From Candidatus Woesearchaeota archaeon (lineage in GTDB: Archaea > Nanobdellota > Nanobdellia > Woesearchaeales > GW2011-AR9), in the NCBI GenBank assembly GCA_016179955.1, contig JACPCD010000007.1:5907-69906 (forward strand): DNA of 64,000 nt. Reading direction: 5' to 3'. This document shows positions 876 through 51,446 of the stretch, piece after piece. Position 1 is the stretch's first letter; each line of letters begins with the position of its first letter. The position numbers and the translations under genes are program-made. Below the pieces are notes generated by a model. That model saw only the letters and a program-made list of their open reading frames with translations, was not told where the DNA came from and ran no database searches.

Positions 876-951
876 TTTTGATTATCTGCTCCATAGTTTT
901 TCTCTCCCCGCTTTGAGCCCGGACGGCCTTGTTATTTATTTTTATTTGAAG

Positions 952-1035
952 GGCCGCAGGCGGGAATTGAACCCGCTCCTCTTGCTGTCAGCATAATTCC
1001 ACAGGCAAGAACGCTACCTATACGCTACTGCGGTC
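952..1035 (-). tRNA. tRNA-His (anticodon GUG) with a 12-nt intron in the anticodon loop, encoded G-1 and no encoded CCA
   Basis: The minus-strand cloverleaf was reconstructed by hand. G-1 pairs with discriminator C73. Acceptor is ACCGCAG/CUGCGGC with a single A1·C72 mismatch. D-stem is GCGU/GCGU with two G·U pairs and D-loop AUAGGUA. Anticodon stem is CUUGC/GCAAG and the loop is CUGUGG|A with anticodon GUG. There are 13 nt (AAUUAUGCUGACA) between G37 and stem position 39, so an intron at the canonical 37/38 site. Variable loop is AGGA and the T-arm is GCGGG-UUCAAUU-CCCGC. Confidence 0.8.
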
Positions 1036-3016: not shown

Positions 3017-3894
3017 GGGAGGGCAATATTTTCAATGAATTTGATATCTTTATCTGTAAGATTAAAGTCAAGTGCCAGATCCTCTTTCATATGAGTGGAA
3101 TTAGTTGTTCCGGTTAACGGTAATATCCCGATTTGCAGGGCAAATTTAAAGATAATTTGTGTTGATGTTGTATGTAATTTTGCGGCAAGGGGTTGTACTT
3201 GCGGCAACACCAAAGCATTCGCAGTTAGCAATGAAAATCCTTGATATATAATGCCTTTTTGGGTACAGAATTGCCGTATTTCTTTATCCCAGCCTAACTG
3301 CGCATAGCAGCGATTTTGCACGAAGGTTGGTTTTACAGCGGCTCGTTGATACAATTGTTGTAATTGATCGAGATTAACATTACTTATTCCAAGATAAGTC
3401 ACTTTTTGTTCTTTATGGATTGCTTCCATCTCCTGCCATACGTGCCAGTCAGCAGGTGCCAATCCTACCCCAGTAGAGGGGCCATGCAAGAGATAAGAAT
3501 CGATATAATTAGTCTGTAAATGTTGCAGTGAACTTTGAAACGATTGCCGTACTTGGGTGGCATAGTCAGCATATGGATTGTAGGGCAATCTATGATCTTG
3601 TCCATCAACAGAGGTGAATTTGGTTTGCAGAAAAAGTTGGTTTCGGTGAATACCGCTTTTAATGATGGCATTGCCCACTGCAGTTTCATTATAATGTTGG
3701 CGTTGATTGGCAGTATCGATAGCTCGAAAACCGGTCTTGAGGGCGGTAAGGACCAGATTTTCCGTAGCTTCTTCTTTCCAGGCAGTACCATAGATGATGA
3801 GTGGGGGTTGCATACTTTGAATAGAATGTTCTAATTTATAAGCGTTAGTGGCTTTTCGGTTAATATGAAGCATTTGTAATTTTTTATCTGTCAA
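3013..3894 (-). CDS. Aldo/keto reductase family oxidoreductase
   Basis: 293 aa. Carries AKR signatures (GTAWKEEATENLVLTALKTGFRAIDTANQRQHYNETAVGNAI and the LFLQTKF region). Confidence 0.75.
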   Translation of the reverse strand: MTDKKLQMLHINRKATNAYKLEHSIQSMQPPLIIYGTAWKEEATENLVLTALKTGFRAIDTANQRQHYNETAVGNAIIKSGIHRNQLFLQTKFTSVDGQDHRLPYNPYADYATQVRQSFQSSLQHLQTNYIDSYLLHGPSTGVGLAPADWHVWQEMEAIHKEQKVTYLGISNVNLDQLQQLYQRAAVKPTFVQNRCYAQLGWDKEIRQFCTQKGIIYQGFSLLTANALVLPQVQPLAAKLHTTSTQIIFKFALQIGILPLTGTTNSTHMKEDLALDFNLTDKDIKFIENIALP

Positions 3895-16061: not shown

Positions 16062-16499
16062 ATGACCTATATTCACACCGTAGACCCGCAAATGCTGGTG
16101 CAGAAGGCTGCCGAAGAGCTGAAGAAACAAAAGTTAGTACAGCCGACGGACTGGAGCCAGTTCGTCAAGACTGGTCATCATCAGGCACGACGGCCAGACC
16201 AGGACGACTGGTGGTTTCACCGTTCTGCGGCCGTATTGAGAAGCGTCGCCAAGCTCGGCCCCATCGGCACCCAAAAGCTAAGAACCAAGTTCGGCGGCCG
16301 GAAACGCCGCGGCCACAAGCCAGAACGATTCTACAAAGCCTCGGGATCCATTATCCGGGTCATTCTCCAGCAGCTGGAAACGTCGGGATTAATCAAGTCC
16401 GCACAGAAAGGCGTGCATAAAGGCCGTATCTTAACTCCAAAAGGAATGTCCTTCTTAGACAAGATTGCGATTGGGATTGCAAAACAGCAGAAAGAGTAA
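16062..16499 (+). CDS. rps19e: 30S ribosomal protein S19e
   Basis: 145 aa: RRPDQDDWWFHRSAAVLR...ASGSIIRVILQQLETSGLI. Confidence 0.85.
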   Translation: MTYIHTVDPQMLVQKAAEELKKQKLVQPTDWSQFVKTGHHQARRPDQDDWWFHRSAAVLRSVAKLGPIGTQKLRTKFGGRKRRGHKPERFYKASGSIIRVILQQLETSGLIKSAQKGVHKGRILTPKGMSFLDKIAIGIAKQQKE

Positions 16500-16503
16500 A
16501 AAT

Positions 16504-16677
16504 ATGGCAACGTTCAAACATCCGGCAAAAAAGAAACGGCTCATAAAATTTAGCCGACAGACTAAATGGGCCCCTTTCTGGACCGTGTTTAAGATTTATG
16601 GAAAAGGAAGAAGAGTTCATCCTTCCCGACACACCTATGTCAAGCGCTCCTGGCGCCGAGGTTCAACGAAAGCATAA
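16504..16677 (+). CDS. rpl39e: 50S ribosomal protein L39e
   Basis: MATFKHPAKKKRLIKFSRQTKWAPFWTVFKIYGKGRRVHPSRHTYVKRSWRRGSTKA. The start was reassigned to the internal ATG. Confidence 0.8.
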   Translation: MATFKHPAKKKRLIKFSRQTKWAPFWTVFKIYGKGRRVHPSRHTYVKRSWRRGSTKA

Positions 16678-17045
16678 TGGCAACGGCAAAAGAAACATTC
16701 ACTTTAGAACGAACGTATACTGTTCCCCTGCGCAAGGAATCGCAAAAGGCTCCGCGCTGGAAACGGACCCGAAAGACCGTTCGGGCATTACGGGAATTTC
16801 TGCAGAAACATATGAAAGCAGAGCATATCAAGTTGAGCAAGGAAATCAACGAAAAACTGTGGGAACATGGCCTGCGCAATCCCCCGCACCATCTCAAGGT
16901 AACGGTGAAGAAAGATGATAAAGGCGTGGTGCACGCGGAATTGTTTGGCGCCGTAAAGAAAGAAAAGCCGGCACAGAAAAAAGGAAAAGGAACGAAAGAG
17001 GCGAAAGCTCTTCCCCCGTCCGAGCCGCCGCAAGAGAAAGAATAG
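16677..17045 (+). CDS. rpl31e: 50S ribosomal protein L31e
   Basis: ERTYTVPLRKESQKAPRWKRTRKTVRALREFLQKHMK. The start overlaps the L39e stop (TAATG). Confidence 0.85.
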   Translation: MATAKETFTLERTYTVPLRKESQKAPRWKRTRKTVRALREFLQKHMKAEHIKLSKEINEKLWEHGLRNPPHHLKVTVKKDDKGVVHAELFGAVKKEKPAQKKGKGTKEAKALPPSEPPQEKE

Positions 17046-17284: not shown

Positions 17285-18757
17285 ATGAAAACATTTCAAA
17301 ATTTGGAAACAGAAAAAAGCTTTTTTAGAGAAAAATGTTGTATTAGCTACGGTGACCAAAAAGTCTACTTTAATGAAATTATCCTGCCAAATCAGTTTAA
17401 GAAACTGTATTCCAAAGAGCGAATAATGCTCAGATTAAAGAAAGCGATTAACACCGCCAGCAGCCGGCCATCCTTTAACATCCCTTCTTCGTTGTGCCAA
17501 AAAAATGGGATAGAACCAGGTAAGATAGTAATTCTCCGGATAACTAACTCAAAGAAAACCTACGAAATAATAACCAAAGTTGGTGCTTGGAGGAGGATAA
17601 ATGTACCAAGAGAAGTAATCGATAGTCTTAATATTGTCCACGAGCAAAAAGTAATCATCGAGATTATTAAAGAAACAGACCACCGCAATTCAGAAAAGAA
17701 AGATTTAGTTTCATTGCTTGAACATAAAAAGAATATTAAAATGATTAATAGAGAAAACAATTATGTAACGATTTACTCCAGAAGAAAATTTCCCATAACT
17801 TTGCCAAAGAAAGTGTCATTAGAACCTGAACTCATAGAGTGTTTTTTCTTAATCCATGGAGACGGCCATTATAAAGAAAAATTATTCTTCACCAACAAAG
17901 ATATTGGGTTACATGAGTCAGTTATTGATCTATTGCAAAAGTACTTGGGCATCCCGACTTCTATATGGAAAATGAGAATAAATTTACATGAATCTTACAG
18001 AGAGAAAGAAGCTAAAAACTTCTGGTTAAATAATTTGAAATTTGATAAGCGACAATTTTATCCATCCATATCGAGAACAAAATTCAATACTTCTGCTCAA
18101 GGAAATTTGAGAATAGTAATAGATTATCCTATTGTTTCGGAGATTTTTAGAAACATCTTTATTTATATGCAACAAAATCTAAACCGAAAATCTAGCTTTT
18201 ATGCACTGAATGGCCTGTTCGCTGCGGAGGGCGGAGCACAAATAAGTGAAGTTGGACTGCATAGAATAACTTTAAGCTATAATTTTAAAGAGAAAGAAAT
18301 GTTCCAGAAAATATTAAAAAATTGTAATGTTCTTCACTTATTTAAAGATATTGAACAAGGAAATAATCACGGCATTTTTGTGTTGGAAGGCTGGGAAAAA
18401 TTATACCTTTTCTTTAAAGAGTTTGCCATTAAAAAAATTACACCATTTAACTTCCATAACGCTCGAAAACAAAGAGCCATTAATGGGATGATAGAACACT
18501 CTTTTACCAAAACGATGTGCAAATACTTAATGGCATTAAGTCAAAACAAAAAATACACTGTAAAAGAATTTTCAGAAAAACTCCAGATGAGAGAAGATTC
18601 ATGTTTATCTACATTAAGAAAAAAACAATATTCACCATTTATCAACATCAGTGGGCTAGGGATAAATAAGCAACCTTTTTCTATTTCAATAACCAAGCAA
18701 GGTCAAGAATTATTAACCATTATTTCAACTATGCGAGGTGAAAAGATGCATGAATAA
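17285..18757 (+). CDS. LAGLIDADG-type homing-endonuclease-like protein (two degenerate LAGLIDADG motifs) inside an AT-rich insertion
   Basis: 490 aa. Motifs FFLIHGDGHY and LNGLFAAEGGAQ lie about 100 aa apart. GC content is far below the flanking genes. The ORF overlaps the cbf5 start by 20 nt. Confidence 0.5.
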   Translation: MKTFQNLETEKSFFREKCCISYGDQKVYFNEIILPNQFKKLYSKERIMLRLKKAINTASSRPSFNIPSSLCQKNGIEPGKIVILRITNSKKTYEIITKVGAWRRINVPREVIDSLNIVHEQKVIIEIIKETDHRNSEKKDLVSLLEHKKNIKMINRENNYVTIYSRRKFPITLPKKVSLEPELIECFFLIHGDGHYKEKLFFTNKDIGLHESVIDLLQKYLGIPTSIWKMRINLHESYREKEAKNFWLNNLKFDKRQFYPSISRTKFNTSAQGNLRIVIDYPIVSEIFRNIFIYMQQNLNRKSSFYALNGLFAAEGGAQISEVGLHRITLSYNFKEKEMFQKILKNCNVLHLFKDIEQGNNHGIFVLEGWEKLYLFFKEFAIKKITPFNFHNARKQRAINGMIEHSFTKTMCKYLMALSQNKKYTVKEFSEKLQMREDSCLSTLRKKQYSPFINISGLGINKQPFSISITKQGQELLTIISTMRGEKMHE

Positions 18758-19597
18758 GCAAATATTTGTAAAGAGAAAAAGTATTGGAATCTTTGGAAAA
18801 AAGCCAGAAGAAAGGACTCCAGAAGAGCTTATCCATTATGGTATTATCAACATAGACAAGCTAAAAGGCCCAACCTCCCACCAGGTTTCTGACTATGTTC
18901 AAAGGATATTAGGCATTACCAAAGCTGGCCACTCCGGGACCTTAGAGCTATAATCAAGGAAATCCTCAAGTGACTGGTGTTCAGCCTATTGCCTTAGACA
19001 GAGCTACGCGTATCACCCAGTTTCTGTTAGCCGCGCCTAAAGAATATGTTGGTATTATGCATTTACATAAAGCGGTAGAGGAAGAAAAAATAAAAGAAGC
19101 AGTCCACTCTTTTTTAGGTAAAATAATGCAGCTTCCCCCGGTGAAAAGCGCCGTGAAGCGGGTGCAGCGGGAACGAGAGATCTACGAATTTAACCTGCTG
19201 GAAATAAAAGACAAAGACGTGTTGTTCCGGGTACGATGCCAGGCTGGCACGTATATCCGAAAATTAGTCCATGATTTGGGGCAGGCATTAGGAATCGGCG
19301 CGCACATGACCGAACTTCGGCGAACCCAAGCCGGGCCCGGTAGAAAAAGCATTGAAGTATATCCCCAAATGCTGGATTCTTGACTCCACCATTCCCAGCG
19401 TCTCGCATGGGCGAGACGTGGCGATTCCCGGCATCAGCAAATTAGAGAATTTCCGAAAAGGGGAAATTGTGGCGGTAATGACTCTGAAAGAGGAATTGGT
19501 GGCTATCGGTAAGAGTATGATGTCGGCAGTAGAAATTAACACTCAGCAGAAAGGGATTGCGATTGATGTGGAGAAAGTGTTTAACCATACTACTTAA
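18738..19597 (+). CDS. cbf5: tRNA/rRNA pseudouridine synthase Cbf5 (TruB catalytic domain plus PUA); the frame is interrupted twice
   Basis: Three consecutive ORFs (18738-18953, 18970-19383, 19352-19597) are collinear with archaeal Cbf5 (GPTSHQV, KAGHSGTL | DPQVTGVQPIAL, AGTYIRKL, ELRRTQAGP | KCWILDSTIPSVSHGRDVAIPGI, PUA domain). Confidence 0.8.
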
Positions 19598-19630: not shown

Positions 19631-20350
19631 GTGCCCTTTCAAAGCCGTACAGGAGGATTAAAAACTATGACCCAATTACAATTAGACGGACCAACTGTAC
19701 ATACAACGTATTACGGCAAAAACGTAGAACAAATGCCTAAACTTCTTGCCGAGGGCAAAGAACCAATGAGTGTGGCTCATTTAATGGAACAACGACTGGC
19801 AGTACGAGACCAAGGAGTAAGTCCAGTACAGCATGACGCATGGTGGGGTAATTATTTTGACAATGCTGATTTATGGCTGCGACATCCAGACAAAGGCGGA
19901 AAAGTAGTTCCCTACAGCGCCGCAGTGCTTACCTTTCTTCAAGAACATCTTAAACCCGAAACCAAGTTAGTGGATTATGGAGTTCCCTTACCCGATGGAT
20001 TATACGAAGCCATGGACGGATTAGAATTGAAAACAGCTGATATTGGACGATTGCATTCACGAGGATATACCCCTACAGAAGCCAAGAAATCAGTGGTATG
20101 GAGAGAGTTGGCGCGGACACAAAAACGCTTAGATAACTATGTTGATGCTGTTGTTGTGGAAACGGGCAGAGAGCGAGACTTAATGAATACCTACTTTGGT
20201 GAAGCTTCAAAAGTTCCAACCGGGCGGCTTTGGTTTGTCAGCGGCAGGAACAACGATTCCCTTGCGGGTGGCAACTACAATCTTACCCTTGACTATGGTC
20301 GCCTGGTCGGGGTAGCGCCGGAGGCGCACGTCGCGCGCGCAAAAAAATAA
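19631..20350 (+). CDS. DGR target protein; the C-terminus carries the variable repeat
   Basis: 239 aa. The last ~32 codons (20220-20316) match the downstream template repeat, with every mismatch at a template adenine. Confidence 0.75.
   Translation: MPFQSRTGGLKTMTQLQLDGPTVHTTYYGKNVEQMPKLLAEGKEPMSVAHLMEQRLAVRDQGVSPVQHDAWWGNYFDNADLWLRHPDKGGKVVPYSAAVLTFLQEHLKPETKLVDYGVPLPDGLYEAMDGLELKTADIGRLHSRGYTPTEAKKSVVWRELARTQKRLDNYVDAVVVETGRERDLMNTYFGEASKVPTGRLWFVSGRNNDSLAGGNYNLTLDYGRLVGVAPEAHVARAKK
20220..20316 (+). repeat. DGR variable repeat (VR)
   Basis: About 97 nt aligned to TR 20542-20638. The 14 differences all fall at TR adenines (TR AAC/AAT codons versus VR AGC, GGC, CTT, GGT, TAC, TAT). Confidence 0.85.
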
Positions 20351-20541
20351 GAAGTCTACACCACCAATATCTTTTTATATCTCCTTCTTTTTTCTTCGTT
20401 GTCCCAGCATCAGCCATGAAGGCTGTACCATGAGCTGGACTACACGTCTTTCCACCACGGCAGCACGGCTGCTATAAAATACAGCCCCAACTTGATGCAT
20501 AGCACTGAAGGGGCAGTGATATAGTCCGTGGAAGGGCTACT

Positions 20542-20638
20542 CCGGGCGGCTTTGGTATGTCAACAACAGGAACAACGATTCCAATGCGAATGGCAACAAC
20601 AATCTTACCAATGACAATGGTCGCCTGGTCGGAATAGA
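20542..20638 (+). repeat. DGR template repeat (TR)
   Basis: Adenine-rich (many AAC/AAT codons). Non-coding on its own but in frame with and immediately upstream of the RT ORF. Confidence 0.85.
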
Positions 20639-20669
20639 CCTGCTCATTTTTGCTGGGATATTTTCCCCT

Positions 20670-22328
20670 ATGGAAATTTCAACCATTTCTCTTTTTGACC
20701 AGCTATGCCATTATGATAATTTATATCTGGCATATTGGAAAGCACGAAAAGGAAAGACACAGAGAAAATACGTTCTTGACTTTGAAGAAAAATTACAGGA
20801 AAATCTTCTGCGGTTGCAGCAAGAACTTCAGTCTCAAACATATCATCCGAAGCCTTTAGAAACATTCATTCTCCGCGATCCCAAGACCAGGAAAATCAGT
20901 AAGTCTGATTTTCGTGACCGTGTTGTCCATCATGCACTCTGCAATATCATTGAACCGTTGTTTGAAAAAGGCTTTATTTATGATTCCTATGCCAACCGAA
21001 GAGGAAAAGGAACATTGAAAGCAGTACAACGATTTGATGAATTTAAGAAAAATGTTTCTAAAAATAATACCACTATTTGTTTCGTGTTAAAAGCAGACAT
21101 TAAGCATTATTTTGAAACTGTTGATCATGATATTTTATTAAGTATACTGAGTCAGAGAATTCATGATGAGAAGGTATTATGGCTAACCAAGATAATTCTG
21201 TCCAACCATTCCACCACCGCCCCAGGCACAGGAATGCCTCTGGGCAATTTAACATCACAATTTTTTGCCAACATCTATCTTAATGAGTTGGATCAATTTG
21301 TAAAACATACTCTCAAAGCAAGGTATTACATTCGATACGTTGATGACTTTGTGATTCTTCACTCATCCAGCAATCTATTGAAAATGTATGAACAGAAGAT
21401 AGGTTTATTCTTGCGGGAAAAGTTAGCCTTAGAACTTCATCCGCACAAATCAAAAATTGTTAACCTAGAATCAGGCGTTCATTTCTTAGGATTCAGGATA
21501 TTCTATCATTACCGGCTCATTCGAAAGAAAAATATGCATAAGTCTCAACAAAAGTTTCGGCAGCTACAGCAAGAATATCAGGAAGGATTGCTTAATCGGG
21601 AGAAAGTTATCGAATATCTTGAAGGCTGGCTGGCGTTTGCATCACAGGCAAATACCTATAAATATCGAAGATGGTTAATACGGTGGTTTAACCAAGCTTT
21701 TCCATTGGAACAAAAGACACCCCTGGTGGTTTTACAAAAACATCAGAACCTGATGATAAAATCGGAAGAAAGCCAGATACAATTTACCGTTCAGAAAACA
21801 CTTCAATTATTCAGAAAATGTTGGTCTATTTCCCAAATCGCGAGGGCCAGAGACATTACAGAATCTACGGTGTGGGCCCATTTGGCAAATCTGGTCGAAC
21901 ATTATCAAATACCACTGGCTAAGGTAATTCCAAAAGAAAAAATTATTAAAATTCTTCCAAAAATTAGGAATGAAAAAGAAACGTTGAAAGAAATTAAACA
22001 GAAGATTAATGATGCTTCCATAACTTATGAGGAGATAAATTGCGGCCTCGCAAGTATAAAAGCAAAGAAGAAGAAAAGAGGTATTGTCCCCATTGTTTCA
22101 AACTTTCAGCGAACAAATTGTTATCGCAAATGTTATTTTAATCCTCATCAGCGAAAAACATGTGCAAAGAAATTTGAATTATTCTGTTCCCATAATTCGA
22201 CACTGAAAATGAACCCCCAAGAATTTGTGGATTTATTTCAGAATCATATGACCATTTGCGTTCTTCCGGTGAAAGAGAGAAAAAATTACGTTTCGTGGAG
22301 AGAGTTTAGGAAGAATACATGGAAGTAA
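20670..22328 (+). CDS. DGR reverse transcriptase with a C-terminal HTH and cysteine-rich extension
   Basis: 552 aa. RT motifs include YIRYVDDFVI (YxDD) and the DGR-diagnostic PLGNLTSQFFANIY (LGxxxSQ). The C-terminus has ISQIARARDITESTVWAHLANL (sigma-70 region 4/LuxR-like HTH) and five Cys. Confidence 0.9.
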   Translation: MEISTISLFDQLCHYDNLYLAYWKARKGKTQRKYVLDFEEKLQENLLRLQQELQSQTYHPKPLETFILRDPKTRKISKSDFRDRVVHHALCNIIEPLFEKGFIYDSYANRRGKGTLKAVQRFDEFKKNVSKNNTTICFVLKADIKHYFETVDHDILLSILSQRIHDEKVLWLTKIILSNHSTTAPGTGMPLGNLTSQFFANIYLNELDQFVKHTLKARYYIRYVDDFVILHSSSNLLKMYEQKIGLFLREKLALELHPHKSKIVNLESGVHFLGFRIFYHYRLIRKKNMHKSQQKFRQLQQEYQEGLLNREKVIEYLEGWLAFASQANTYKYRRWLIRWFNQAFPLEQKTPLVVLQKHQNLMIKSEESQIQFTVQKTLQLFRKCWSISQIARARDITESTVWAHLANLVEHYQIPLAKVIPKEKIIKILPKIRNEKETLKEIKQKINDASITYEEINCGLASIKAKKKKRGIVPIVSNFQRTNCYRKCYFNPHQRKTCAKKFELFCSHNSTLKMNPQEFVDLFQNHMTICVLPVKERKNYVSWREFRKNTWK

Positions 22329-23034: not shown

Positions 23035-23775
23035 CTAGGCCATCTCAGGAAGCAGTAGGTTTTCTTCCGGCTCTGCGACGAGAGGAGGTACAGGAGGTGA
23101 AGGGGATACTGTCTTAGAATCGTCAACGGGCTCAAGTGCCGTGGCCTTGCGGTCGCTTGGTGAGTTTGCCCCGGCGCCGTCAACCATTTCTTCCTGCAAC
23201 TTCAGCACCCGGATGGCCGCTTCTTTAAGAGGATAAATCTTATGCAGGTTCTTCTTCAGAGGCGCCAGAACTTTATTTCCCGCCAGGTTAACCATAAAGC
23301 TGGTGAAGTCATTGCTTTCAATCTCCGCGCGCAAAAATTCTCCCAGGTCCTTGCGCAGGTGTGCGCTGACGGAGCGCTGCACTTTGTGCAGGGTGATGAT
23401 TAATGTTTTAACCACCACTTTTTTCCCGTCTTTGCTGGTAAACATAAAATAATCATCCAGGCGGTCAGTATTGCCGCGGACCAACCGTTTTACGGACGTG
23501 GCTGTCAAGCTATATCCTATGACGTCGGTGGGAAGAATATGTCCTTTTCCTGCCCCCATCCTGAACGTAAGATAAACATTCTGATCGCGGGAATTTCCGG
23601 TAAGCTCCCGCAGGTTGATGCTGACGGTCCTGCCCTGGGCAGTTTCGGGTGACACTAAATAAGATTCTCCCAATTCCCGTTTTCCGAATTCCGCCGGCGC
23701 CTGAATGGTATACCAATTCTTCTTCGTGGTCTTGATGCGGCTTACTTTCGTTGTCGTAGCTTCATTTTTAGACAT
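23035..23775 (-). CDS. rps3ae: 30S ribosomal protein S3Ae (S1e)
   Basis: KKNWYTIQAPAEFGKRELGESYLV...LTFRMG. Confidence 0.85.
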   Translation of the reverse strand: MSKNEATTTKVSRIKTTKKNWYTIQAPAEFGKRELGESYLVSPETAQGRTVSINLRELTGNSRDQNVYLTFRMGAGKGHILPTDVIGYSLTATSVKRLVRGNTDRLDDYFMFTSKDGKKVVVKTLIITLHKVQRSVSAHLRKDLGEFLRAEIESNDFTSFMVNLAGNKVLAPLKKNLHKIYPLKEAAIRVLKLQEEMVDGAGANSPSDRKATALEPVDDSKTVSPSPPVPPLVAEPEENLLLPEMA

Positions 23776-41700: not shown

Positions 41701-42135
41701 TTATTGTTCCACGGAGGACACAATCGATCCACCAGCAGCTTTTATTTTTTCTTCGGCCTGCGCGCTGTGCCGGGGAACGATGACTTTCAACTTCAAATGG
41801 GTATTTCCAGTTCCCAGCAGTTTCCCGCAATGAATTTTGGTAAGGTCCACCACATAGGTATCGCCTTCTTTAGTTCCCCACTTTTGGACTTTTGGTAAGG
41901 TAAGATCACCCACATTAATGATCTTGTACTGCTCCGCCAGCGGATGGCGCACAAAGCCATGCCGGCCTAAATGAAAGTTCTTCAATCCGGCTTTCTTTTG
42001 TCCAGCGCGCTTTCCGGTTCCAGCATTTCCCCGGCCGCCCCGGGAACCGGCGCCCCGCCGTTTCTTCCGGCTGCCGCCGCCGTGGGTGACGCTGCCCCGG
42101 TACTTAGTCACTTTTTTCCGTCGGTGAACAACCAT
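41701..42135 (-). CDS. rpl15: 50S ribosomal protein L15 (uL15)
   Basis: Glycine/arginine-rich N-terminus (KYRGSVTHGGGSRKKRRGAGSRGGRGNAG). Confidence 0.85.
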   Translation of the reverse strand: MVVHRRKKVTKYRGSVTHGGGSRKKRRGAGSRGGRGNAGTGKRAGQKKAGLKNFHLGRHGFVRHPLAEQYKIINVGDLTLPKVQKWGTKEGDTYVVDLTKIHCGKLLGTGNTHLKLKVIVPRHSAQAEEKIKAAGGSIVSSVEQ

Positions 42136-42137
42136 AA

Positions 42138-42605
42138 TTAAATCATCCTCAGCAATAAATCATTAATTTTCTCCCCGCGATACCCTAAGGCCCCGCCGGC
42201 CGCAAAGGCAATCTTAATCCCTTTCCGCCCAAACCCTTTTCGCGGGGGATTCAACCGAAAATAGGATTTGAAATGCTTTTTCCCATAGGTCAGGTAAGGA
42301 TAGGAATATAATTTGGTGCGGTCCTGCAGCCGCCCGCCATAGGGCAATCCGCGCTTCTCCAGTAATTCCTTAAACACTTCCGCAGTAATCTCCCCCCAGG
42401 TCACAAAGTCTTTCACTTTGGCGATCATGCCCCGCAAGGCAGGAGTATCATTAACGATCACGCAATGGTTTTTGCGATGCAAGGTAAGTAGTGCCAATGT
42501 ATCTTTTATCTGCTGCGGCACTTTGGCTTCACCTCGGACTAAGATCACGGCGAACTTCCTATTTTCCATTGTCTTCATGTCCGCTCCCGAAGTTGCCTTT
42601 GCCAT
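42138..42605 (-). CDS. rpl30: 50S ribosomal protein L30 (uL30)
   Basis: FAVILVRGEAKVPQQIKDTLALLTLHRKN. Confidence 0.85.
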   Translation of the reverse strand: MAKATSGADMKTMENRKFAVILVRGEAKVPQQIKDTLALLTLHRKNHCVIVNDTPALRGMIAKVKDFVTWGEITAEVFKELLEKRGLPYGGRLQDRTKLYSYPYLTYGKKHFKSYFRLNPPRKGFGRKGIKIAFAAGGALGYRGEKINDLLLRMI

Positions 42606-43412
42606 CTATGCCTCCACCCCTGACACCGCAACGACGGGTTCTATTTTTTCCATGGTGCTTTTTTTCTCCAGTCGGCCATCAACGATCCCCAGCCGCGGAA
42701 TGTCTGCCGAAGCGATCTTCATCGTGGATAATTTTCGGAGCGCATCTAACAGCGCATGAATCAGGTTCACTTTGGTCTTGGTCTGGCCGCTGGTCTTGCT
42801 CCAAACGTCTTTAATGCCGGCCATGGCCAATATTTTAGCGCACTCTTTCTCGACGCATAACCCTTTTCCTTTCGGCGCCGGCATCAGCTGGATACGGGAC
42901 GAACCGCATCGTCCTTCCACCGCAAAGGGAATGGAATGGGCCATCTTGCAGTTGCACTGCCAGCTGCCGCAGCCCCGCCGAACGCGGATGACTTCCGTGC
43001 GGGCTTTGATCTTGGCTTTATCACGAGCCGGCACCGTTTCCTTGCTCTTGCCTAAGCCAATGCCTACATAACCATCTTTATTTCCCACTAAGGCGCAGGT
43101 GGTGAATTGAATTTTATTTCCTTCCTTGGTCTTTTTCTGGGTCTGGCGAAAGATCCGCCGCTGTCCGCCGCCAAACTTTCCTTTGGCCTGGCCAATCAAA
43201 AGTAAGTCCTCTTCCAGATTGGGGAGAAGCGTATCGGTTATTTGTGCTTCCATGATGTGCAACCCCTGGGCGAAGATCTGATCGATATCCGTAATGAGTC
43301 CTTGCTGTACCTTTTTTCCCAGCTCGGTTTTTGGTTTCCAGACTCGCTCGACTCTGGGGATCTCTTCAATGGGAACGCTTACAACTTCTGCCGGTATTGG
43401 ATCGTCTGCCAT
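42606..43412 (-). CDS. rps5: 30S ribosomal protein S5 (uS5)
   Basis: GGGQRRIFRQTQKK...ALVGNKDGYVGIGLGKSKE. Confidence 0.9.
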   Translation of the reverse strand: MADDPIPAEVVSVPIEEIPRVERVWKPKTELGKKVQQGLITDIDQIFAQGLHIMEAQITDTLLPNLEEDLLLIGQAKGKFGGGQRRIFRQTQKKTKEGNKIQFTTCALVGNKDGYVGIGLGKSKETVPARDKAKIKARTEVIRVRRGCGSWQCNCKMAHSIPFAVEGRCGSSRIQLMPAPKGKGLCVEKECAKILAMAGIKDVWSKTSGQTKTKVNLIHALLDALRKLSTMKIASADIPRLGIVDGRLEKKSTMEKIEPVVAVSGVEA

Positions 43413-43434
43413 GGTTTATTTCACAATATCATTA

Positions 43435-44022
43435 TTATTTTAATTTCCCCGTCTGATTGATTTTCTCTTTCACCTTATCAAATGTAACCCCTATCGCTGC
43501 CGGATCGACTTTTGCCGCCAGATACGCGCGGAACTGTGAACCGGATGATTTACCCGCCTGCTGCGCATACGTTGTGATGTGCTCTCCCCGGATTCTCTCT
43601 GGTGCCGGAAAAATATCCACTTCACCGTGAGGCACATCTAAGTTGCCATCGAGCAGCCCCTTCAGGAAGGCATACGCTTTCCCCTTTTTTAAACTTACTT
43701 TAAAACCGGTATCTAAGATTGCTTTGGGACAGCCCACGCCGAGAGCTTTCCGCGCCAACAGTAACCCCGTTAGATAGGCCGCCGGAACATTCTTGCCGGA
43801 GTAGGGCCAGCCAAGCGCTTTCAAGCTGCCGGAATCAACCGCCGCAATGACCTTATCCCCGACACTGTTGAATTCAATGATTTGGGCAATGATCTTTTGG
43901 TTGGTAAACCGAACCACCACTCGGGGAACGCCAGAGGTAAGCATCTTGATCCGTTTAGGATAGTGCGTCTTCTGCATTCTTTTCCGCCGGAACGGTACAG
44001 GTTTCAATCGCAGGCGTGCCAT
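43435..44022 (-). CDS. rpl18: 50S ribosomal protein L18 (uL18)
   Basis: RLKPVPFRRKRMQKTHYPKRIKMLTSGVPRVVVRFTNQKIIAQI. Confidence 0.85.
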   Translation of the reverse strand: MARLRLKPVPFRRKRMQKTHYPKRIKMLTSGVPRVVVRFTNQKIIAQIIEFNSVGDKVIAAVDSGSLKALGWPYSGKNVPAAYLTGLLLARKALGVGCPKAILDTGFKVSLKKGKAYAFLKGLLDGNLDVPHGEVDIFPAPERIRGEHITTYAQQAGKSSGSQFRAYLAAKVDPAAIGVTFDKVKEKINQTGKLK

Positions 44023-44024
44023 GA

Positions 44025-44486
44025 TTATTTCTTTTCCCCTCCGCGTTGTTGAACGAGATGGTGCTCCGTCAAGTATAACTTAATGTGCCGGATATTCCGG
44101 AAATAGCCCCCTTTGCTTTTGGCATAGAGCTGATGGTAATCCGCCATGGACAATAATTGCCGCTCCCGTAGCCGTTGGAGAAACTCTCGTTGCGCGCGGA
44201 TGCGTAATATCCACTGCCGTTTCCGGCCCAATAAGGAATATTTCGGCCCTTTGGCGCTGCCCCGGCCAACCCGGCGGCCTTTCCGCTTCTGCGCACTCCG
44301 TTCCCGTGCTCTTCCCCGGGATTGCTGGTTCGTCCCATCTTTCCATATCTTATGCACGGCAATCAGGCCACGGATATCAGAGCGGGTGATGGCTTTACGA
44401 ATATCCTCCAACGCCTCATCGGCGAACCGAATCTTAGACGGCGCCGTGTTCAGTATCTCCGCTGCTAATCGTTTTTTGGATTTCAT
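44025..44486 (-). CDS. rpl19e: 50S ribosomal protein L19e
   Basis: MKSKKRLAAEILNTAPSKIRF...IWKDGT. The start was trimmed to the internal Met. Confidence 0.85.
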   Translation of the reverse strand: MKSKKRLAAEILNTAPSKIRFADEALEDIRKAITRSDIRGLIAVHKIWKDGTNQQSRGRARERSAQKRKGRRVGRGSAKGPKYSLLGRKRQWILRIRAQREFLQRLRERQLLSMADYHQLYAKSKGGYFRNIRHIKLYLTEHHLVQQRGGEKK

Positions 44487-44505
44487 GGTCGTGGGGTAAT
44501 CATCT

Positions 44506-45123
44506 TTATTGTCGTTTAGTGATGGTCTTGTCAATCATTTCTTTTTGCTCTTCGCGTTTCTGCTCTTCCTCGCTCTTGCCTTCTGCAGCTTTTTCCTCCG
44601 TTTTCTTTTCCTGCTGCTCCTTTTTCTTTTTTTCCTCGGCTTTCTTTTTCTTCTCTTCGTCCTTCTGCTGCTTCTGAGCAAGGGATTCCCGGCGCTCTTT
44701 CCGCCGCTGCTCATACACTTCGGTCAAGCGAGCCCGTTCTTTACCGGCATCTTTGACGTTCAGCACCCGGATCTTCTTTTCCAAAGCAAAGGCCAACAGC
44801 GTCAAACGCTTTTTAGCACCCACCGCGGAAGCGATAACTGCTCCCTGGGTACGGGAATCTATTTTCTGTAATTCAGCGAGTGTATGCACCACAACCTTAG
44901 CCAGTCCAGAGGAATGCAATCCCCGCACTGCCCGGGGGGAACCATACCCTGGCGTGGGAAGAACTCCTTTTCCCTGATGATACTGCCGCACCGGGGAATG
45001 CCGCCCGCCGGGAAACCGCCATTTCTTTTTAATCCGCGGATAATATCCGGCTTCCTTGATGACAAATCGGGGCTGACGTTTCTTGGTGCGGTTCCGCAGC
45101 TCGAGTAAGGATGCCATGGTCAA
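44506..45123 (-). CDS. rpl32e: 50S ribosomal protein L32e with a lysine/glutamate-rich C-terminal extension
   Basis: PRFVIKEAGYYPRIKKKWRFPGGRHSPVRQ, then a ~60-aa K/E low-complexity tail. Confidence 0.8.
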   Translation of the reverse strand: MTMASLLELRNRTKKRQPRFVIKEAGYYPRIKKKWRFPGGRHSPVRQYHQGKGVLPTPGYGSPRAVRGLHSSGLAKVVVHTLAELQKIDSRTQGAVIASAVGAKKRLTLLAFALEKKIRVLNVKDAGKERARLTEVYEQRRKERRESLAQKQQKDEEKKKKAEEKKKKEQQEKKTEEKAAEGKSEEEQKREEQKEMIDKTITKRQ

Positions 45124-45662
45124 ATGTCTTTTCCTGCTTTATGGATAATGTAACAGCCGTCCTGGAATATCCGCCGGTCGCGCTGGGTGATGCGGCACAA
45201 ACTTTCAATTCTCGCCGCCATCTGTCCCGCAATATCCTTATCGGGACTGGTAACGGTGATTTCCTTTTCCTTCACTTCCACTGTTGATCCCGGTAAGATG
45301 CCCACTTTCCGGGGAACGCTTTCTCCCAGGAAATTCTTGATTACGAACTCCGCGCCAGCGACGGCCACGCTCATGGGGAAGTGGCCGGAACAAATTTTCA
45401 GCTTGTAAAGATGCGGTTCCTGCACCCCTTTGACGCTGTTCAGGATATGGGACTCAAACGAGCCCACGATCGTTTTTTCTTTCTTCGTTCCCCGGGACGC
45501 CGTAAGCACCACCTTAGTTCCTTCCACCGCCACCGTTACCTTGGGATGCGTAAAGTCTTGCATCACTTCTCCCCGTGGGCCTTTGATGGTAAGCACGCTG
45601 CCGTGCAACGTAGCCGTAACGCCTTGGTCCAATGCAATTTCCCGGCGAATGGTATTTTTCAT
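45120..45662 (-). CDS. rpl6: 50S ribosomal protein L6 (uL6)
   Basis: GVTATLHGSVLTIKGPRGEV. Confidence 0.9.
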   Translation of the reverse strand: MKNTIRREIALDQGVTATLHGSVLTIKGPRGEVMQDFTHPKVTVAVEGTKVVLTASRGTKKEKTIVGSFESHILNSVKGVQEPHLYKLKICSGHFPMSVAVAGAEFVIKNFLGESVPRKVGILPGSTVEVKEKEITVTSPDKDIAGQMAARIESLCRITQRDRRIFQDGCYIIHKAGKDI

Positions 45663-45728
45663 TTTTATTTTTTAATGTTGAGTATTTTATGTTGAGTGGT
45701 GTTGTTTTGTGATTATAATGCACGCACG

Positions 45729-46118
45729 TCAATAACAGTACGCCAACAGCCGCCCCCCAATGGCGTGTTGTTTCGCTTGTGTATGCGTCATGATGCCTCG
45801 TGAGGTGGAAACGATCAGGATGCCAAAGTCTTTGGCCGGCAGATGCCGTTTTTCCCACTTCTCAAATTCGTTCCACTTGGTTGAAAATCGGGGCTTGATG
45901 ACCCCGCAGTTGTTGATGTTTCCCAAGAGGTTAATTTTAAGCGAGCCGCCGCGCTCGTCCACACTCTCTTCAAATGAGCCCAGGTAATTATGCTCATTCA
46001 TAATCCGCAGGACGGTTTTAATCATAGTCGATGCTGGTTTTACAAGTACCTCACGCTTGCCGACACGTTCTGCATTCAGCACATTCGACAACGTTGCTGC
46101 CAAGGGGTCATGTAACAT
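45729..46118 (-). CDS. rps8: 30S ribosomal protein S8 (uS8)
   Basis: DPLAATLSNVLNAERVGKREVLVKPAS. Confidence 0.9.
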   Translation of the reverse strand: MLHDPLAATLSNVLNAERVGKREVLVKPASTMIKTVLRIMNEHNYLGSFEESVDERGGSLKINLLGNINNCGVIKPRFSTKWNEFEKWEKRHLPAKDFGILIVSTSRGIMTHTQAKQHAIGGRLLAYCY

Positions 46119-46131
46119 GTTGATATCCTCA

Positions 46132-46362
46132 TTAACTAAATTTTTTGAATCCTAAGCCCACTGCCATCTCGCGGAAACATTGCCGGCACAGGTGCAGGCC
46201 ATACTTGTTGATGTGGCCTCTAATCCTTCCGCAGTTGCGGCACCGCCGCAGGGATGTGCCGCAGGATCGTTCCTTGGGACTATTGAACTTGACGAACTTT
46301 GCTCTCTTGATAGGCTTATGGTCCAGCTGTTTGAACACTTTCTTATAATCGCTATAGGACAT
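46132..46362 (-). CDS. rps14: 30S ribosomal protein S14 (uS14, zinc-binding type)
   Basis: [25 protein letters not shown]. Confidence 0.8.
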
Positions 46363-46364
46363 AG

Positions 46365-46871
46365 TTAATGGACCTCCACGCCCAGGCTTCGCGCAAAGGC
46401 CATGGACTCTTCTTTGGTGATGCGGTGCGCCTTGCCAATGGGAGACGGCCGAACCTTGCGCCGCGATACCCGAAATCCTGGCCGGCCCAGTGTCACCGCT
46501 ACTTCTAACCCTAATATTTTCAACTCTGGATCATAACTTAACCCGGCAATGTCAATGTATTCCGGAATGCCAAAGGAAAAATTTCCCGACTGGTCAAAAT
46601 TCTTTTCCTCCAATACATTTCCTTTTGCTGCTAGCAGGCGCTTCAGCAGCGCATCGCAATCATCCCGGATCGTCACTTTACAGCCGATAGCTAATCCCGG
46701 CCGCAATCCCCAACCCGGAATCCTCTTTCGAGTAGTAGTCTTTACCGGCGCCGTGGGAGATAATTTCTGCAGCAGCTGCAGCCCTTTCTTTAACATATCC
46801 TCATTCTTCCCGGCACCGATATTTAAGGTAATCTTATCGATCCGGATGATTTTCATAATAGTGGTAGTCAT
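46365..46871 (-). CDS. rpl5: 50S ribosomal protein L5 (uL5)
   Basis: [22 protein letters not shown]...[15 protein letters not shown]. Confidence 0.9.
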
Positions 46872-46876
46872 GGTAG

Positions 46877-47569
46877 TTATGGTGTTGTTCGCAAAGCAAT
46901 CACTGGTTTTCCGTGCCCCAGGACAAACAAGTACTTTTTCAACGTATCGACATCTCCGCCGTCCGCAGCATAGGTCACTTCTCCCCCTTTTATGCTTTTG
47001 AGCACGCCGACGTCACCGGCCCGTCGTCCTCGGGTTACAAAGACCGTCGCTCCCGGCTTTAATGGTAGGATTTCTTTGGCCTGTAGCGAAGGTAAATCTA
47101 GCAGCACCGTATCCCCAACTCGGGCAGCGCCATCAAGGAACACGTTCTTGCCGTCATGGAGATTATATTGTATCTTTCCGCCCCGCATGACTGATTTGCC
47201 GACAACTTGGCAGGGTTTAAGAGAACTTTCCGTAGCAGTAATCTCCTGCAGCAGCAAACGTCCCTTCTGATCCAGCAGGAAACGATAATTTTTCTTCAGC
47301 GGCGTTATGCTGAGCACGTCAAACAGCCCGACAATGTGCCGGTGGTCAGTCCGGCGCACGCCGTCAACTAAAATTTCGCTGCCGTGGATAAGCTTCTTGG
47401 CTTCCGCAAGAGTTTTGGTAAGGTGCAGCACATCGCGGATGACGACACCGAGCGGCATACCCATGTCTAATGAATGGGCACCCGGATTAGGACGGAGCAC
47501 AAAGGTTGTTCCTTTCCGGCTGAAGTTCCATTGTTTAGGCGCCGTGAGCCGTTTTAAGTGATTTTTCAT
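46877..47569 (-). CDS. rps4e: 30S ribosomal protein S4e
   Basis: HLKRLTAPKQWNFSRKGTTFVLRPNPGAHSL. Confidence 0.9.
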   Translation of the reverse strand: MKNHLKRLTAPKQWNFSRKGTTFVLRPNPGAHSLDMGMPLGVVIRDVLHLTKTLAEAKKLIHGSEILVDGVRRTDHRHIVGLFDVLSITPLKKNYRFLLDQKGRLLLQEITATESSLKPCQVVGKSVMRGGKIQYNLHDGKNVFLDGAARVGDTVLLDLPSLQAKEILPLKPGATVFVTRGRRAGDVGVLKSIKGGEVTYAADGGDVDTLKKYLFVLGHGKPVIALRTTP

Positions 47570-48102
47570 TTTTTACCCTCGCGAGGAGGCATAGGTGGTG
47601 ATTTGGAGTATGATTTTGATGGAGCAGAGGAAACGTCGCTCTTCGCTGCAGTATTCTCCACACTTACTGGTTTTGCATTCTGGGTTTGAGGCGTGCCTGA
47701 ACGTTGAGTTGGATTTTTTGATTTCGATTCAACCTTTTGTTTCCGTCGGCGATCGTTGAGATCAAGCTCCACCAACAATAAAGTGGATGGATGCAGCGGA
47801 ACCGGCACTTTGGAACCATCTTTCTTGACGATTTCCGCGCCAGCAACCCTGACCGTTTCCCGTTTCAGATTGACCGATTCCACGCGTCCCTCTTTCCTTG
47901 CAAACCGGCCTCGGCAAATTTTCACTTTATCACCGACGCGCAGTTGCAGGTTACGGAACCCATATTTCTTCCGCAAGACGGCCGAGAGATGGACATGCAT
48001 CTGCTTCTGGCGCTGATGCAGCGGCGCAGTATACCTAAATTTGCGCTGCTTTCGCGGTTGAATGCTCCGTTTCCAGCTCAGGGTATAGGTTGAATCTTTC
48101 AT
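47566..48102 (-). CDS. rpl24: 50S ribosomal protein L24 (uL24, KOW) with a C-terminal extension
   Basis: SIQPRKQRKFRYTAPLHQRQKQMHVHLSAVLRKKYGFRNLQLRVGDKVKICRGRF. The start was trimmed to the internal Met. Confidence 0.85.
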   Translation of the reverse strand: MKDSTYTLSWKRSIQPRKQRKFRYTAPLHQRQKQMHVHLSAVLRKKYGFRNLQLRVGDKVKICRGRFARKEGRVESVNLKRETVRVAGAEIVKKDGSKVPVPLHPSTLLLVELDLNDRRRKQKVESKSKNPTQRSGTPQTQNAKPVSVENTAAKSDVSSAPSKSYSKSPPMPPREGKK

Positions 48103-48127
48103 AGGTAACATCACATAGTTAGTAACA

Positions 48128-48529
48128 TCATAACACCATGCTAGCCACTTTTGCCACCGCGGGCCAGCGCTCACTTATTTCCTTGGCAATGGGACCCTTG
48201 AAGATAGTTCCCTTTGGGTTCCCTTTGTCATCTTTCAATACTACTGCTGCATTATCCTCAAACTGCACTCTGGTTCCGTCGGGACGACGGAATTCCTTGG
48301 CCTGTCGCACGATGACTGCCGGTACCACTGTTTTCCTCATCTCCAATTTCCCTACTTTGACCGAGGCCATGACTAAATCACCCAGGCCGGCGGAAGGTAC
48401 TCGCCCACGAACCGTCTTATGACCCTTGACGGCCACGATCTTCAGGATCTTGGCGCCGGAATTATCACAGGCGACGACACGTGCCTGGATCGGCAGACTG
48501 CGGGTAATTTTGCTTTTGAGCGCTTTCAT
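48128..48529 (-). CDS. rpl14: 50S ribosomal protein L14 (uL14)
   Basis: IQARVVACDNSGAKILKIVAVKG. Confidence 0.9.
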   Translation of the reverse strand: MKALKSKITRSLPIQARVVACDNSGAKILKIVAVKGHKTVRGRVPSAGLGDLVMASVKVGKLEMRKTVVPAVIVRQAKEFRRPDGTRVQFEDNAAVVLKDDKGNPKGTIFKGPIAKEISERWPAVAKVASMVL

Positions 48530-48846
48530 GGGAGCACCTGGATGATTACGTGGTTCTTGGTTTTACTCAAGGGCCTGGTTCGCGCCACCATTACCTGAGC
48601 ACCGACGGCAGCATTCAGGCACGCCGGATTATGGACGCGCATGCGCACCCGCCGGACTTCATGCCGCTCGTATTTTGGAAGGTAATGCAGCCGATGCAGT
48701 TCGATCGTAGCGGAGTGATTGATGTCTTTCTTGATGACCTTCCCCTGGACCGTTTCTTTCTTTACCGTAAGGTCTCCGTGAAAAGGACATTTGACGTCCG
48801 TACATTCTTTTGCGGGTGCTGAAACACCCAATATGGTTTGTGGCAT
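48526..48846 (-). CDS. rps17: 30S ribosomal protein S17 (uS17)
   Basis: KCPFHGDLTVKKETVQGKVIK. Confidence 0.85.
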   Translation of the reverse strand: MPQTILGVSAPAKECTDVKCPFHGDLTVKKETVQGKVIKKDINHSATIELHRLHYLPKYERHEVRRVRMRVHNPACLNAAVGAQVMVARTRPLSKTKNHVIIQVLP

Positions 48847-48980
48847 GGTAATCTTTTGTTTTGGTATCGTTTTTTATCGTTTATTTTTATGTTCTTTGGT
48901 TTTTATGTTTGATTTTTTGTTTTCTTTGCCGTTTTTTGTTGTGAGTGATTATTGATTCCTTCTTTGCTTCTTGCTTACGT

Positions 48981-49250
48981 TCAGTTTCCTTTAAGCCGCT
49001 CGTGCGGCGCCCGGATCAGCTCTTTGCCGTTCAGGATCCGCCCGGATGTTGACAGCCGGAAGGTAATGGCATTCTTCAGCAGCACCGTGGACTTTCCGTC
49101 GTGCTCGATGACCAGCGTACTTTTGGTCTCATCGACGATTGTGCCCCGCAACCCCTGCAGTTGTTTGTTGGTGGACTGGATAACCTTGATGGACTCTCCA
49201 ATCAGCTCCCGGGGATACATGCGTGCCATGTTTTCACCGCCATGTGCCAT
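48981..49250 (-). CDS. rnp1: RNase P protein component 1 (Rpp29/Pop4)
   Basis: RELIGESIKVIQSTNKQLQGLRGTIVDETKSTLVI. Sits at the canonical archaeal position between rpl29/SUI1 and rps17. Confidence 0.75.
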   Translation of the reverse strand: MAHGGENMARMYPRELIGESIKVIQSTNKQLQGLRGTIVDETKSTLVIEHDGKSTVLLKNAITFRLSTSGRILNGKELIRAPHERLKGN

Positions 49251-49258
49251 GGCGATAA

Positions 49259-49564: not shown

Positions 49565-49568
49565 GGCG

Positions 49569-49772
49569 TTATTGAACCACCTCGTGCTGATGCAGCAGGG
49601 CCCGCATCCGGGCCAGGCTCTTTTTGATCTGCTTCAACTTGCCGGGATTTGCCGGCGCAGTGCCGGTGGATACTTGCGAATTAAGTTTCATGAGTTCTTT
49701 TTTCATTTCCCGGCTGCGTGATTTTAATTCGTCGGATGACAGCCCTTTCAGCTCTTTCATTATTTTACTCAT
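49569..49772 (-). CDS. rpl29: 50S ribosomal protein L29 (uL29)
   Basis: KELKGLSSDELKSRSREMKKELMKLNSQ. Confidence 0.8.
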   Translation of the reverse strand: MSKIMKELKGLSSDELKSRSREMKKELMKLNSQVSTGTAPANPGKLKQIKKSLARMRALLHQHEVVQ

Positions 49773-51057: not shown

Positions 51058-51059
51058 GG

Positions 51060-51440: not shown

Positions 51441-51446
51441 GTTATT

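Follow-up and report, generated by a model that had tools for sequence, protein, structure and literature searches.

Does the repeated 3' end of a small gene, beside a reverse transcriptase gene, mark a complete diversity-generating retroelement (DGR) in an archaeal chromosome, and with which RNA and protein parts would such an element work? The question is raised by positions 19631 to 22328 of a 64-kb stretch of DNA (the window; 64,000 nt of contig JACPCD010000007.1) from a Candidatus Woesearchaeota archaeon, for which a complete DGR had been proposed earlier (the original prediction). All of its parts were recovered: differences between a template region (TR) and a variable region (VR) that are confined to adenines, a DGR-type reverse transcriptase (RT), a VR inside a target gene, and an IMH (initiation of mutagenic homing) sequence with its TR counterpart (IMH*) and a hairpin. 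The locus is read here, with a probability of about 0.9, as an intact chromosomal DGR of Woesearchaeota (DPANN) which diversifies a lectin-fold protein through the RNA and RT mechanism described below.

DGRs of DPANN lineages occur widely among groundwater archaea and presumably tune the interactions of these tiny symbionts with their hosts. The present element is one more well-preserved DPANN DGR, a new example within a known group, the nanoarchaeal/woesearchaeotal AvpA-type DGRs published in 2015-2016. GenBank already holds it, with no annotation beyond "hypothetical protein" and "helix-turn-helix domain-containing protein". The RNA scaffold and the Avd-less design of such archaeal DGRs are poorly described. 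The position of the Rfam family RT-16 at the 5' flank of the TR, a long-range helix closing the template, and the regular fusion of the RT to HTH_40 are apparently undescribed in the searchable literature, a scope that leaves aside the Paul 2017 survey of DGRs in the candidate phyla radiation (CPR) and DPANN.

Variable and template regions

The repeat pair and the hairpin next to it were located as follows.

20220 to 20315, forward strand: VR; its diversified codons are residues 190-210 of the target, and its last 20 nt (20296-20315), TGGTCGCCTGGTCGGGGTAG, are IMH-like
20316 to 20328, forward strand: GC hairpin/cruciform (GCGCC-GGA-GGCGC, GRA triloop) directly 3' of the IMH, inside the target open reading frame (ORF), where it encodes APEA
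20542 to 20637, forward strand: TR, with its IMH* end ...TGGTCGCCTGGTCGGAATAG at 20618-20637

The two copies form a gapless alignment of 96 nt (20220-20315 with 20542-20637; offset 322, 85% identity). All 14 mismatches fall at adenines of the downstream copy, which has 30 adenines in the 96 nt (hypergeometric p = 6e-9). The 97th position (20316/20638, C versus A) is a TR adenine as well, and homology stops at 20317; in the alignment of 20220-20316 against 20542-20638 that the original prediction had proposed as its check, every mismatch lies at a TR adenine. At 20311-20312 the VR has GG and the TR has AA, and because the identical difference occurs in about 25 related loci it is considered a fixed IMH/IMH* difference (IMH GGGGTA, IMH* GGAATA) and not a product of mutagenesis. 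Without these two positions, 12 of 12 mismatches are found on 27 adenines in 91 nt (p = 5.5e-8). These 12 A-to-N substitutions span 20235-20294, and codon positions 1 or 2 take 11 of them.

The 30 TR codons that precede GGAATA hold 27 adenines, for the most part in AAC or AAT codons, of which there are 11. No stop codon can be reached through adenine substitution in the TR. About 21 target codons are open to change, and the possible repertoire amounts to 1.8e16 DNA and 6.6e15 protein variants. The claim that the 3' end of the target gene recurs downstream stood as to location, with a 225-nt spacer, but the VR stops short of the end of the gene: the 34-35 nt between it and the stop codon (20348-20350) hold the end of the IMH and the hairpin. 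No further repeat copies, extra VRs or remote targets were found in a search across the whole window.

The hairpin and the IMH/IMH* pair are almost invariant in the approximately 25 related loci. Nanoarchaeal DGRs have been described with IMH TGGGGT versus IMH* TGGAAT and with GRA-loop hairpins inside the target gene (Paul et al. 2015, PMC4372165), to which CGGGGT/CGGAAT and the GRA-loop hairpin within the ORF correspond here. The hairpin encodes part of an invariant VAPEAH, and the peptide GRLVGVAPEAH is strongly conserved in homologs; since the DNA of the hairpin and IMH is near-invariant there, the conservation of this peptide is at least partly a constraint at the DNA level. Together the IMH/IMH* pair and the GRA-loop hairpin appear to mark the VR as the recipient.

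Target protein

19667 to 20350, forward strand: target (variable protein) gene, 227 aa, with a predicted AvpA-like C-type-lectin fold

The ORF originally given for the target (19631-20350) exists, but its likely start codon is ATG 19667, which is preceded by AGGAGG (19651-19656) at a distance of 10 nt. GTG 19631 is an unlikely start, since the 227-aa length obtained from ATG 19667 is that of the GenBank protein and of all close homologs.

Based on fold comparison, the target is predicted to have an AvpA-type C-type-lectin fold in which the VR would form the putative binding site; a fold of this class had been put forward for checking in the original prediction, which also noted that the protein lacks a signal peptide and would be cytoplasmic. 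The target is a small protein without a secretion signal. The link to AvpA came only from the fold comparison. Identity between the two proteins is 14%, and AvpA was not reached at E <= 10 by phmmer or by a 67-sequence family profile. Among PDB sequences nothing was matched by the single protein or by the same profile, and no domain match was found in Pfam, NCBIfam, PADLOC or PHROGs. By eye, RLVGV (212-216) matches the AvpA motif RFxGV and GGKVVPYSA (77-85) partly matches GxxVVVYAH, while the second AvpA motif, HPxxxPFxG, was not found in the target.

Reverse transcriptase

The RT gene and the regions of its product, all on the forward strand, are these.

20670 to 22328: DGR reverse TRANSCRIPTASE (RT) ORF, 552 aa, with the RT core at about residues 1-345
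Residues 72-277: RVT_1 (Pfam)
Residues 373-458 (nt 21786-22043): HTH_40 (Pfam)
Cysteines 484, 488, 498 and 530 (nt 22119-22259): conserved, invariant in homologs

As stated in the original prediction, the TR lies directly upstream of the RT gene and in frame with it, although the frame relation has no evident meaning. The gap between them is 32 nt (20638-20669) with the TR ending at 20637, or 31 nt with the end used earlier.

The LGxxxSQ and YxDD motifs reported for the RT are present as LGNLTSQ and YVDD, aligned to IGSLTSQ and YMDD of Bordetella. The best match among PDB sequences was chain A of 8ub7 (E 8e-50), a DGR RT that surpassed the best group II intron RT (7e-26) by 24 orders of magnitude. 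In Foldseek the top five entries were RTs of DGR ribonucleoproteins, including 8ub7/8ubd (Bordetella), with TM scores of 0.83-0.84 normalised to the target and 30% identity. PHROGs gave phrog_1423 (E 1e-116). The best NCBIfam match was a group II intron RT/maturase (173 bits, below the cut-off of 300) and PADLOC returned many models of defence-associated RTs (DRT). All these matches were below the curated cut-offs of NCBIfam. An affinity to these classes was set aside as an artefact of two libraries in which no DGR-specific model was seen, the PDB comparisons pointing to a DGR RT instead. The RT is of the DGR type, as judged from its motifs and from the PDB sequence and structure comparisons rather than from a formal tree, and it sits nearer to DGR than to group II RTs, as had been expected.

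The ORF is intact, contains all catalytic motifs and is 54-81% identical to full-length homologs. An architecture of about 550 aa with RVT_1 and HTH_40 is common to 119 of the 120 listed RT homologs, the exception being a 426-aa fragment; the listed homologs with a named source come from DPANN archaea. The C-terminal extension of about 200 aa consists of HTH_40 and the four-cysteine region and is all-alpha in an AlphaFold2 (AF2) model, which has a predicted local distance difference test (pLDDT) score of 84.9, with about 84-94 for the C-terminal domain. In an exhaustive search of representatives the HTH_40 part was found in many unrelated proteins. The full module was seen for the most part in fused or fragmentary RTs, and two proteins of about 205 aa may be free-standing copies of it. 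Unexplained C-terminal extensions of up to about 150 aa are carried by about 20% of DGR RTs (Wu et al. 2018).

Diversification in related loci

The comparison was based on 74 target homologs, those labelled by source being from Woesearchaeota or Nanoarchaeota, and on 80 fetched loci in which VR/TR pairs were sought with a simple repeat finder. Adenine-biased pairs were found in 31 of the 80, always in the order target-VR, 320-580 nt, TR. In an alignment of 22 close homologs, the 16 residues with an adenine at position 1 or 2 of their TR codon had a mean column entropy of 2.37 bits. The remaining 14 residues of the VR averaged 0.31 bits, and the protein outside the VR 0.91 bits.

The TRs of three relatives (L002, L003 and L006) are identical to the window TR at 92-94 of 96 positions. 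The VRs of L003 and L006 differ from the window VR at 19 and 25 positions, 15 and 20 of which are positions where both TRs have an adenine, and their own VR/TR mismatches are at adenines in 18 of 18 and 19 of 20 cases, respectively. Near-identical TRs with VRs that differ at adenine sites therefore point to repeated, independent and recent mutagenic homing in this lineage.

L002 is a 2.5-kb Nanoarchaeota contig which begins (1-60) with the end of one VR and its hairpin, followed by RT-16, TR and RT, the latter annotated with 426 aa and incomplete relative to the 552-aa query. After the RT a second AvpA-like target is located (1934-2538), and its VR has different adenine substitutions; some relatives thus have two targets flanking one RT. 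No RT-16 was found near the AvpA-like genes of the long loci L001, L009, L022, L027, L038, L051, L053 and L055, despite flanks of several kb, and in L001 an RNase P RNA lies downstream of the AvpA-like gene instead. Such genes without an adjacent DGR could be remote targets or non-diversified paralogs; AvpA-like genes apart from DGRs have also been reported in Woesearchaeota genomes (Handa 2016, PMC5006420).

Non-coding RNA

Between the target gene and the RT gene, four further elements were identified on the forward strand.

20372 to 20379: TATA-like box TTTTTATA, putative archaeal promoter of the TR-RT transcript
20400 to 20409: 5' arm TGTCCCAGCA of a long-range closing helix, complementary to the 3' arm (covariation; minimum free energy (MFE) fold)
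20410 to 20545: structured RNA domain, Rfam RF03019 (RT-16), which fills the VR-TR spacer and abuts the TR
20651 to 20660: 3' arm TGCTGGGATA of the closing helix, with 13 nt between it and IMH* and 9 nt between it and the start codon of the RT

In cmscan the full length of the RT-16 model (1-158) was matched at 56.3 bits, above its gathering score of 50, with an E-value of 6e-6 over the whole window. At gathering thresholds the scan of the window gave RT-16 and one tRNA only; an E-value scan of 20100-21000 added only sub-threshold matches to RT-11 and PrrB/RsmZ. RT-16 was likewise found beside AvpA-like genes in 34 further loci, with 53-88 bits, so that an orphan Rfam family is now placed, in 35 loci including the window, as an RNA domain directly 5' of a DGR template. 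Its 3' end is no more than 5 nt from the TR start in 18 of the 20 loci with both mapped, and no gene ever lies between.

RT-1 to RT-19 were described as motifs near RT genes, and only RT-10, the Bordetella TR-brt spacer, was tied to a DGR (Weinberg et al. 2017, PMC5737381). RT-16, like RT-10, is located beside an RT gene, here directly 5' of the DGR template; it was left unassigned in that work, and the long-range helix that encloses it lies outside the Rfam model. No assignment of a function to RT-16 was found in the searchable literature. Sarcin-ricin-like internal loops are listed in RT-16, RT-10 and several other RT motifs (2026 JAR3D survey). The RT-11 match (20411-20518) is weak, at 23 bits far under the gathering score of 143.5, and the boxes CUACACG, AUAAAAU-ACAGCC-CAAC and GAAG-GGCAGUG are common to both families, which suggests that RT-11 and RT-16 may be related.

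The closing helix was examined in an alignment of 26 loci whose segments were anchored on the TATA box and on IMH*, independent of the helix itself. Over its 10 bp, 90% of the cells are paired; sliding the partner strand lowers this to 48.5% or less. Both sides have changed in seven of the 10 pairs (e.g. C-G to U-A in 8 loci, A-U to G-C in 3). There are 22 double-change cells against 7.1 +/- 2.1 in shuffled alignments, and the observed score was never attained in 500 shuffles. The helix appears again in the MFE fold of 20398-20670, and it encloses exactly RT-16 and the TR in a non-coding RNA unit of 271 nt.

A TT[TA]ATA box is present near the start of RT-16 in 29 of 32 loci, and in all 26 aligned loci a TTTATA-type box precedes the first core pair of the 5' arm by 25-29 nt. 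Archaeal TATA boxes are expected at such a distance from the start site, and the transcript therefore probably starts at or just before the 5' arm.

Accessory proteins and comparison with known systems

No avd gene was found in the cassette: neither the VR-TR nor the TR-RT interval holds an ORF, and downstream of the RT a metallophosphoesterase gene follows in convergent orientation. When 32 small ORFs from across the window were scanned with Pfam, the Avd family was absent from the 25 families listed out of 29 matched, where ribosomal and housekeeping families were seen instead. An accessory gene (Avd, HRDC, MSL or CH1) was the only one of the DGR features looked for that was missing; it is not strictly defining, and some DGRs lack avd (Wu et al. 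2018). In comparison with the DGRs of Nanoarchaeota (DUSEL4) and AvpA (PMC4372165; PMC5006420; PDB 5IOO), 17 residues follow the VR here and 46 do so in AvpA, and the small Avd-like ORFs reported in the DUSEL4 cassettes are absent here.

In the DGR of Bordetella BPP-1 (mtd-avd-TR-Sp-brt), RNA flanking the TR on either side is required for cDNA synthesis (Handa 2018, PMC6182149; Handa 2024, 10.1101/2023.10.23.563531; PDB 8UB7-8UBF). There the spacer RNA (Sp) pairs with the TR 3' end in a template:primer duplex, priming from the 2'-OH of Sp A56; two nucleotides later Sp pairs with an upstream avd segment in the "cPRT Stop" duplex, and the rest of Sp wraps the Bordetella RT (bRT) and bears an Avd-binding stem-loop just downstream of the TR (Handa 2018/2024). 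Of 278 Avd-containing DGRs, 207 were predicted to form duplexes and stem-loops of a similar kind (Handa 2018/2024).

Both systems have adenine-specific mutagenic retrohoming, homologous RTs, the IMH/IMH* logic and a hairpin after the VR. In both the TR is bracketed by upstream:downstream pairing, the cPRT Stop duplex in BPP-1 and the 20400-20409/20651-20660 helix here. However, BPP-1 has an avd gene and its structured RNA (Sp, about 140 nt) is 3' of the TR, whereas the present locus has no avd and its structured RNA (RT-16, about 136 nt) is 5' of the TR, where it separates the upstream helix strand from the template. Only 13 nt lie between the TR and the 3' arm here, which leaves no room for the 9-bp Avd-binding stem-loop. 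The RT has 552 aa with HTH_40 and the cysteine module, in contrast to the 328 aa of bRT without an extra domain, and the target protein here is small and lacks a signal sequence, where that of BPP-1 is a phage tail fibre.

Proposed mechanism

Transcription would begin at or close to the 5' arm, some 25 nt beyond the TATA-like box (20372-20379), and the transcript would contain in order the 5' arm, RT-16, the TR, the 13-nt linker, the 3' arm and the RT ORF. Pairing of the arms would close RT-16 and the TR into one folded unit, bringing the TR 3' end, the presumed cDNA start site upstream of GGAATA, beside structured RNA. The RT would then copy the TR into cDNA with misincorporation opposite adenines, and the cDNA would replace the VR, guided by the IMH and the hairpin. 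By analogy with Bordetella, the closing helix may be the topological equivalent of the upstream:downstream cPRT Stop duplex, and RT-16 may supply the protein-binding RNA scaffold that Sp provides 3' of the TR. The helix, backed by covariation, resembles that duplex with the scaffold on the opposite side of the template.

The element probably works without Avd, because there is neither an avd gene nor space for an Avd-binding stem-loop after the TR; the C-terminal HTH_40 and four-cysteine module of the RT is the obvious candidate for the role of Avd. For the large clade of DPANN DGRs that includes this element we put forward, tentatively and at somewhat less than even odds, a rearranged Avd-independent machine, in which the scaffold has moved 5' (RT-16), a covarying helix closes the template, and HTH_40 with the four-cysteine region replaces Avd. 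If this is true, RT-16 gains a function and the element would be the most compact self-contained DGR design, of one RNA and one protein. With no avd, no room for its stem-loop and a conserved extra RT domain, Avd-independent mutagenic retrohoming becomes testable with two components. Such a two-component system would be attractive for engineering compact tools for targeted mutagenesis, and the locus offers a clean, compact reference (227-aa target, 271-nt non-coding RNA unit, single protein).

Alternative explanations

An ordinary segmental duplication of the 3' end of a gene beside an unrelated RT, of a group II intron, a retron or a defence system, would agree with the NCBIfam and PADLOC matches, although these come from libraries without a DGR model. 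It is effectively refuted by the 14 of 14 differences at adenines of one copy, by the recurrence of the pattern in 31 loci, and by the closest solved relatives of the RT, in sequence and in structure, being DGR RTs. In addition, RNAs of the RT motifs were noted never to occur on both flanks of an RT gene and to be smaller than self-splicing RNAs (Weinberg 2017, PMC5737381), and the cmscan searches described above returned, besides RT-16 and the tRNA, only sub-threshold matches. It is also quite improbable that the VR/TR pattern is the fossil of past homing in an element which no longer diversifies. The frame break in the neighbouring cbf5 gene (see below) does indicate some local decay or an assembly error, but the RT ORF is intact with all its motifs, and the TR, IMH, hairpin, RT-16 and closing helix are all intact and conserved. 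Moreover, the near-identical TRs and adenine-site VR differences of the relatives argue for homing that was recent and repeated.

A DGR could also be real while RT-16 and the closing helix act outside reverse transcription, for example as a 5' untranslated region (UTR) or other regulator of RT translation, or as an independent small RNA (sRNA). The 3' arm is close enough to the RT start codon for the helix to occlude translation initiation, and the tie of RT-16 to cDNA synthesis is itself inferred. We consider this unlikely, if worth keeping in mind, as RT-16 keeps its place next to the TR without an intervening gene, the helix encloses exactly these two, and in Bordetella the RNA that flanks the TR on either side is indispensable, its upstream and downstream parts forming a duplex. 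Regulatory and reverse-transcription roles are, furthermore, compatible with each other.

Several points weigh against the reading of the locus as an active, Avd-independent DGR. The VR of the source genome is represented by one consensus sequence, so that present activity there is presumed, and the same point speaks for the fossil explanation. Besides the role of RT-16, the priming site and cDNA ends are deduced. Several 4-bp pairings of the 13-nt linker with the 3' end of the TR that might serve as a template:primer duplex were seen by eye in the 26 loci, with no consistent covariation. Folded generically as DNA, the GC-rich 46-mer at the 3' end of the VR did no better than shuffles (z = +1.3), so the support for the hairpin is comparative and not thermodynamic. 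An avd gene could lie outside the 64-kb window, and small basic ORFs, Avd-like in size and pI, occur in other nanoarchaeal DGRs (Paul 2015, PMC4372165). A profile of the C-terminal 208 aa of the RT gave only insignificant HTH-like matches in the PDB, and the function proposed for this module is a guess.

Genomic neighbourhood

Ribosomal-protein genes were found at or around 42000-54600 (reverse strand), 16062-17045 and 23035-23775, the last being S3Ae by eye only. The families seen were S19e, L31e, L14, S19, L32e, L26/L24P, L19e, L6, S8, L5e/L18, L30, S17, L23, L5, L22 and L27A/L15. Given these surroundings, the DGR belongs to the core chromosome rather than to a virus or plasmid.

Just upstream of the DGR, cbf5 (pseudouridine synthase; 18738-19597, forward strand) is split over three frames. 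A 16-nt insertion (18946-18961) splits the catalytic Asp codon as G...AT; its removal joins GGG ACC TTA G/AT CCT CAA, which reads GTLDPQVTGV, and restores the catalytic Asp motif with GHSGTLDPQVTGV in frame. The flanks of the insertion fold as a canonical bulge-helix-bulge (BHB), with an outer helix GGGA/UCCU, a 4-bp central helix CCUU/AAGG and 3-nt bulges AGA and AAA, each cut after the second bulge base. In the related locus L004 a 20-nt version is present (reverse strand, about 3727-3746 in locus coordinates), and its removal alone gives a full-length Cbf5 ORF. The insertion is at the same position as the introns of crenarchaeal cbf5 pre-mRNA. It looks like a candidate BHB mRNA intron in Woesearchaeota; cbf5 introns were found only in Desulfurococcales and Sulfolobales, with the Nanoarchaeum gene treated as intron-less (Yokobori et al. 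2009). A second frame break at about 19333-19345 (GCCGGGCCCGGTAG) is a one-base shift relative to L004, and the window gene is without about 37 codons of L004 (FTEKDN...QPIEN), between ELRRTQAGP and (E)KALKYIPKCWILD. This break could be a real deletion/pseudogenisation or an assembly error in a G/C run.

Directly upstream of cbf5, a 490-aa ORF (17285-18757, forward strand) had no Pfam match. Two LAGLIDADG-like motifs were seen in it by eye (FLIHGDGHY and LNGLFAAEGG), and it may be a free-standing homing-endonuclease-like gene. The tRNA gene of the window (951-1034, reverse strand; Rfam tRNA, 47.7 bits) has a length of 83-84 nt. ARAGORN assigned it a four-base anticodon (gtgg) and no amino acid, and it probably contains an intron.

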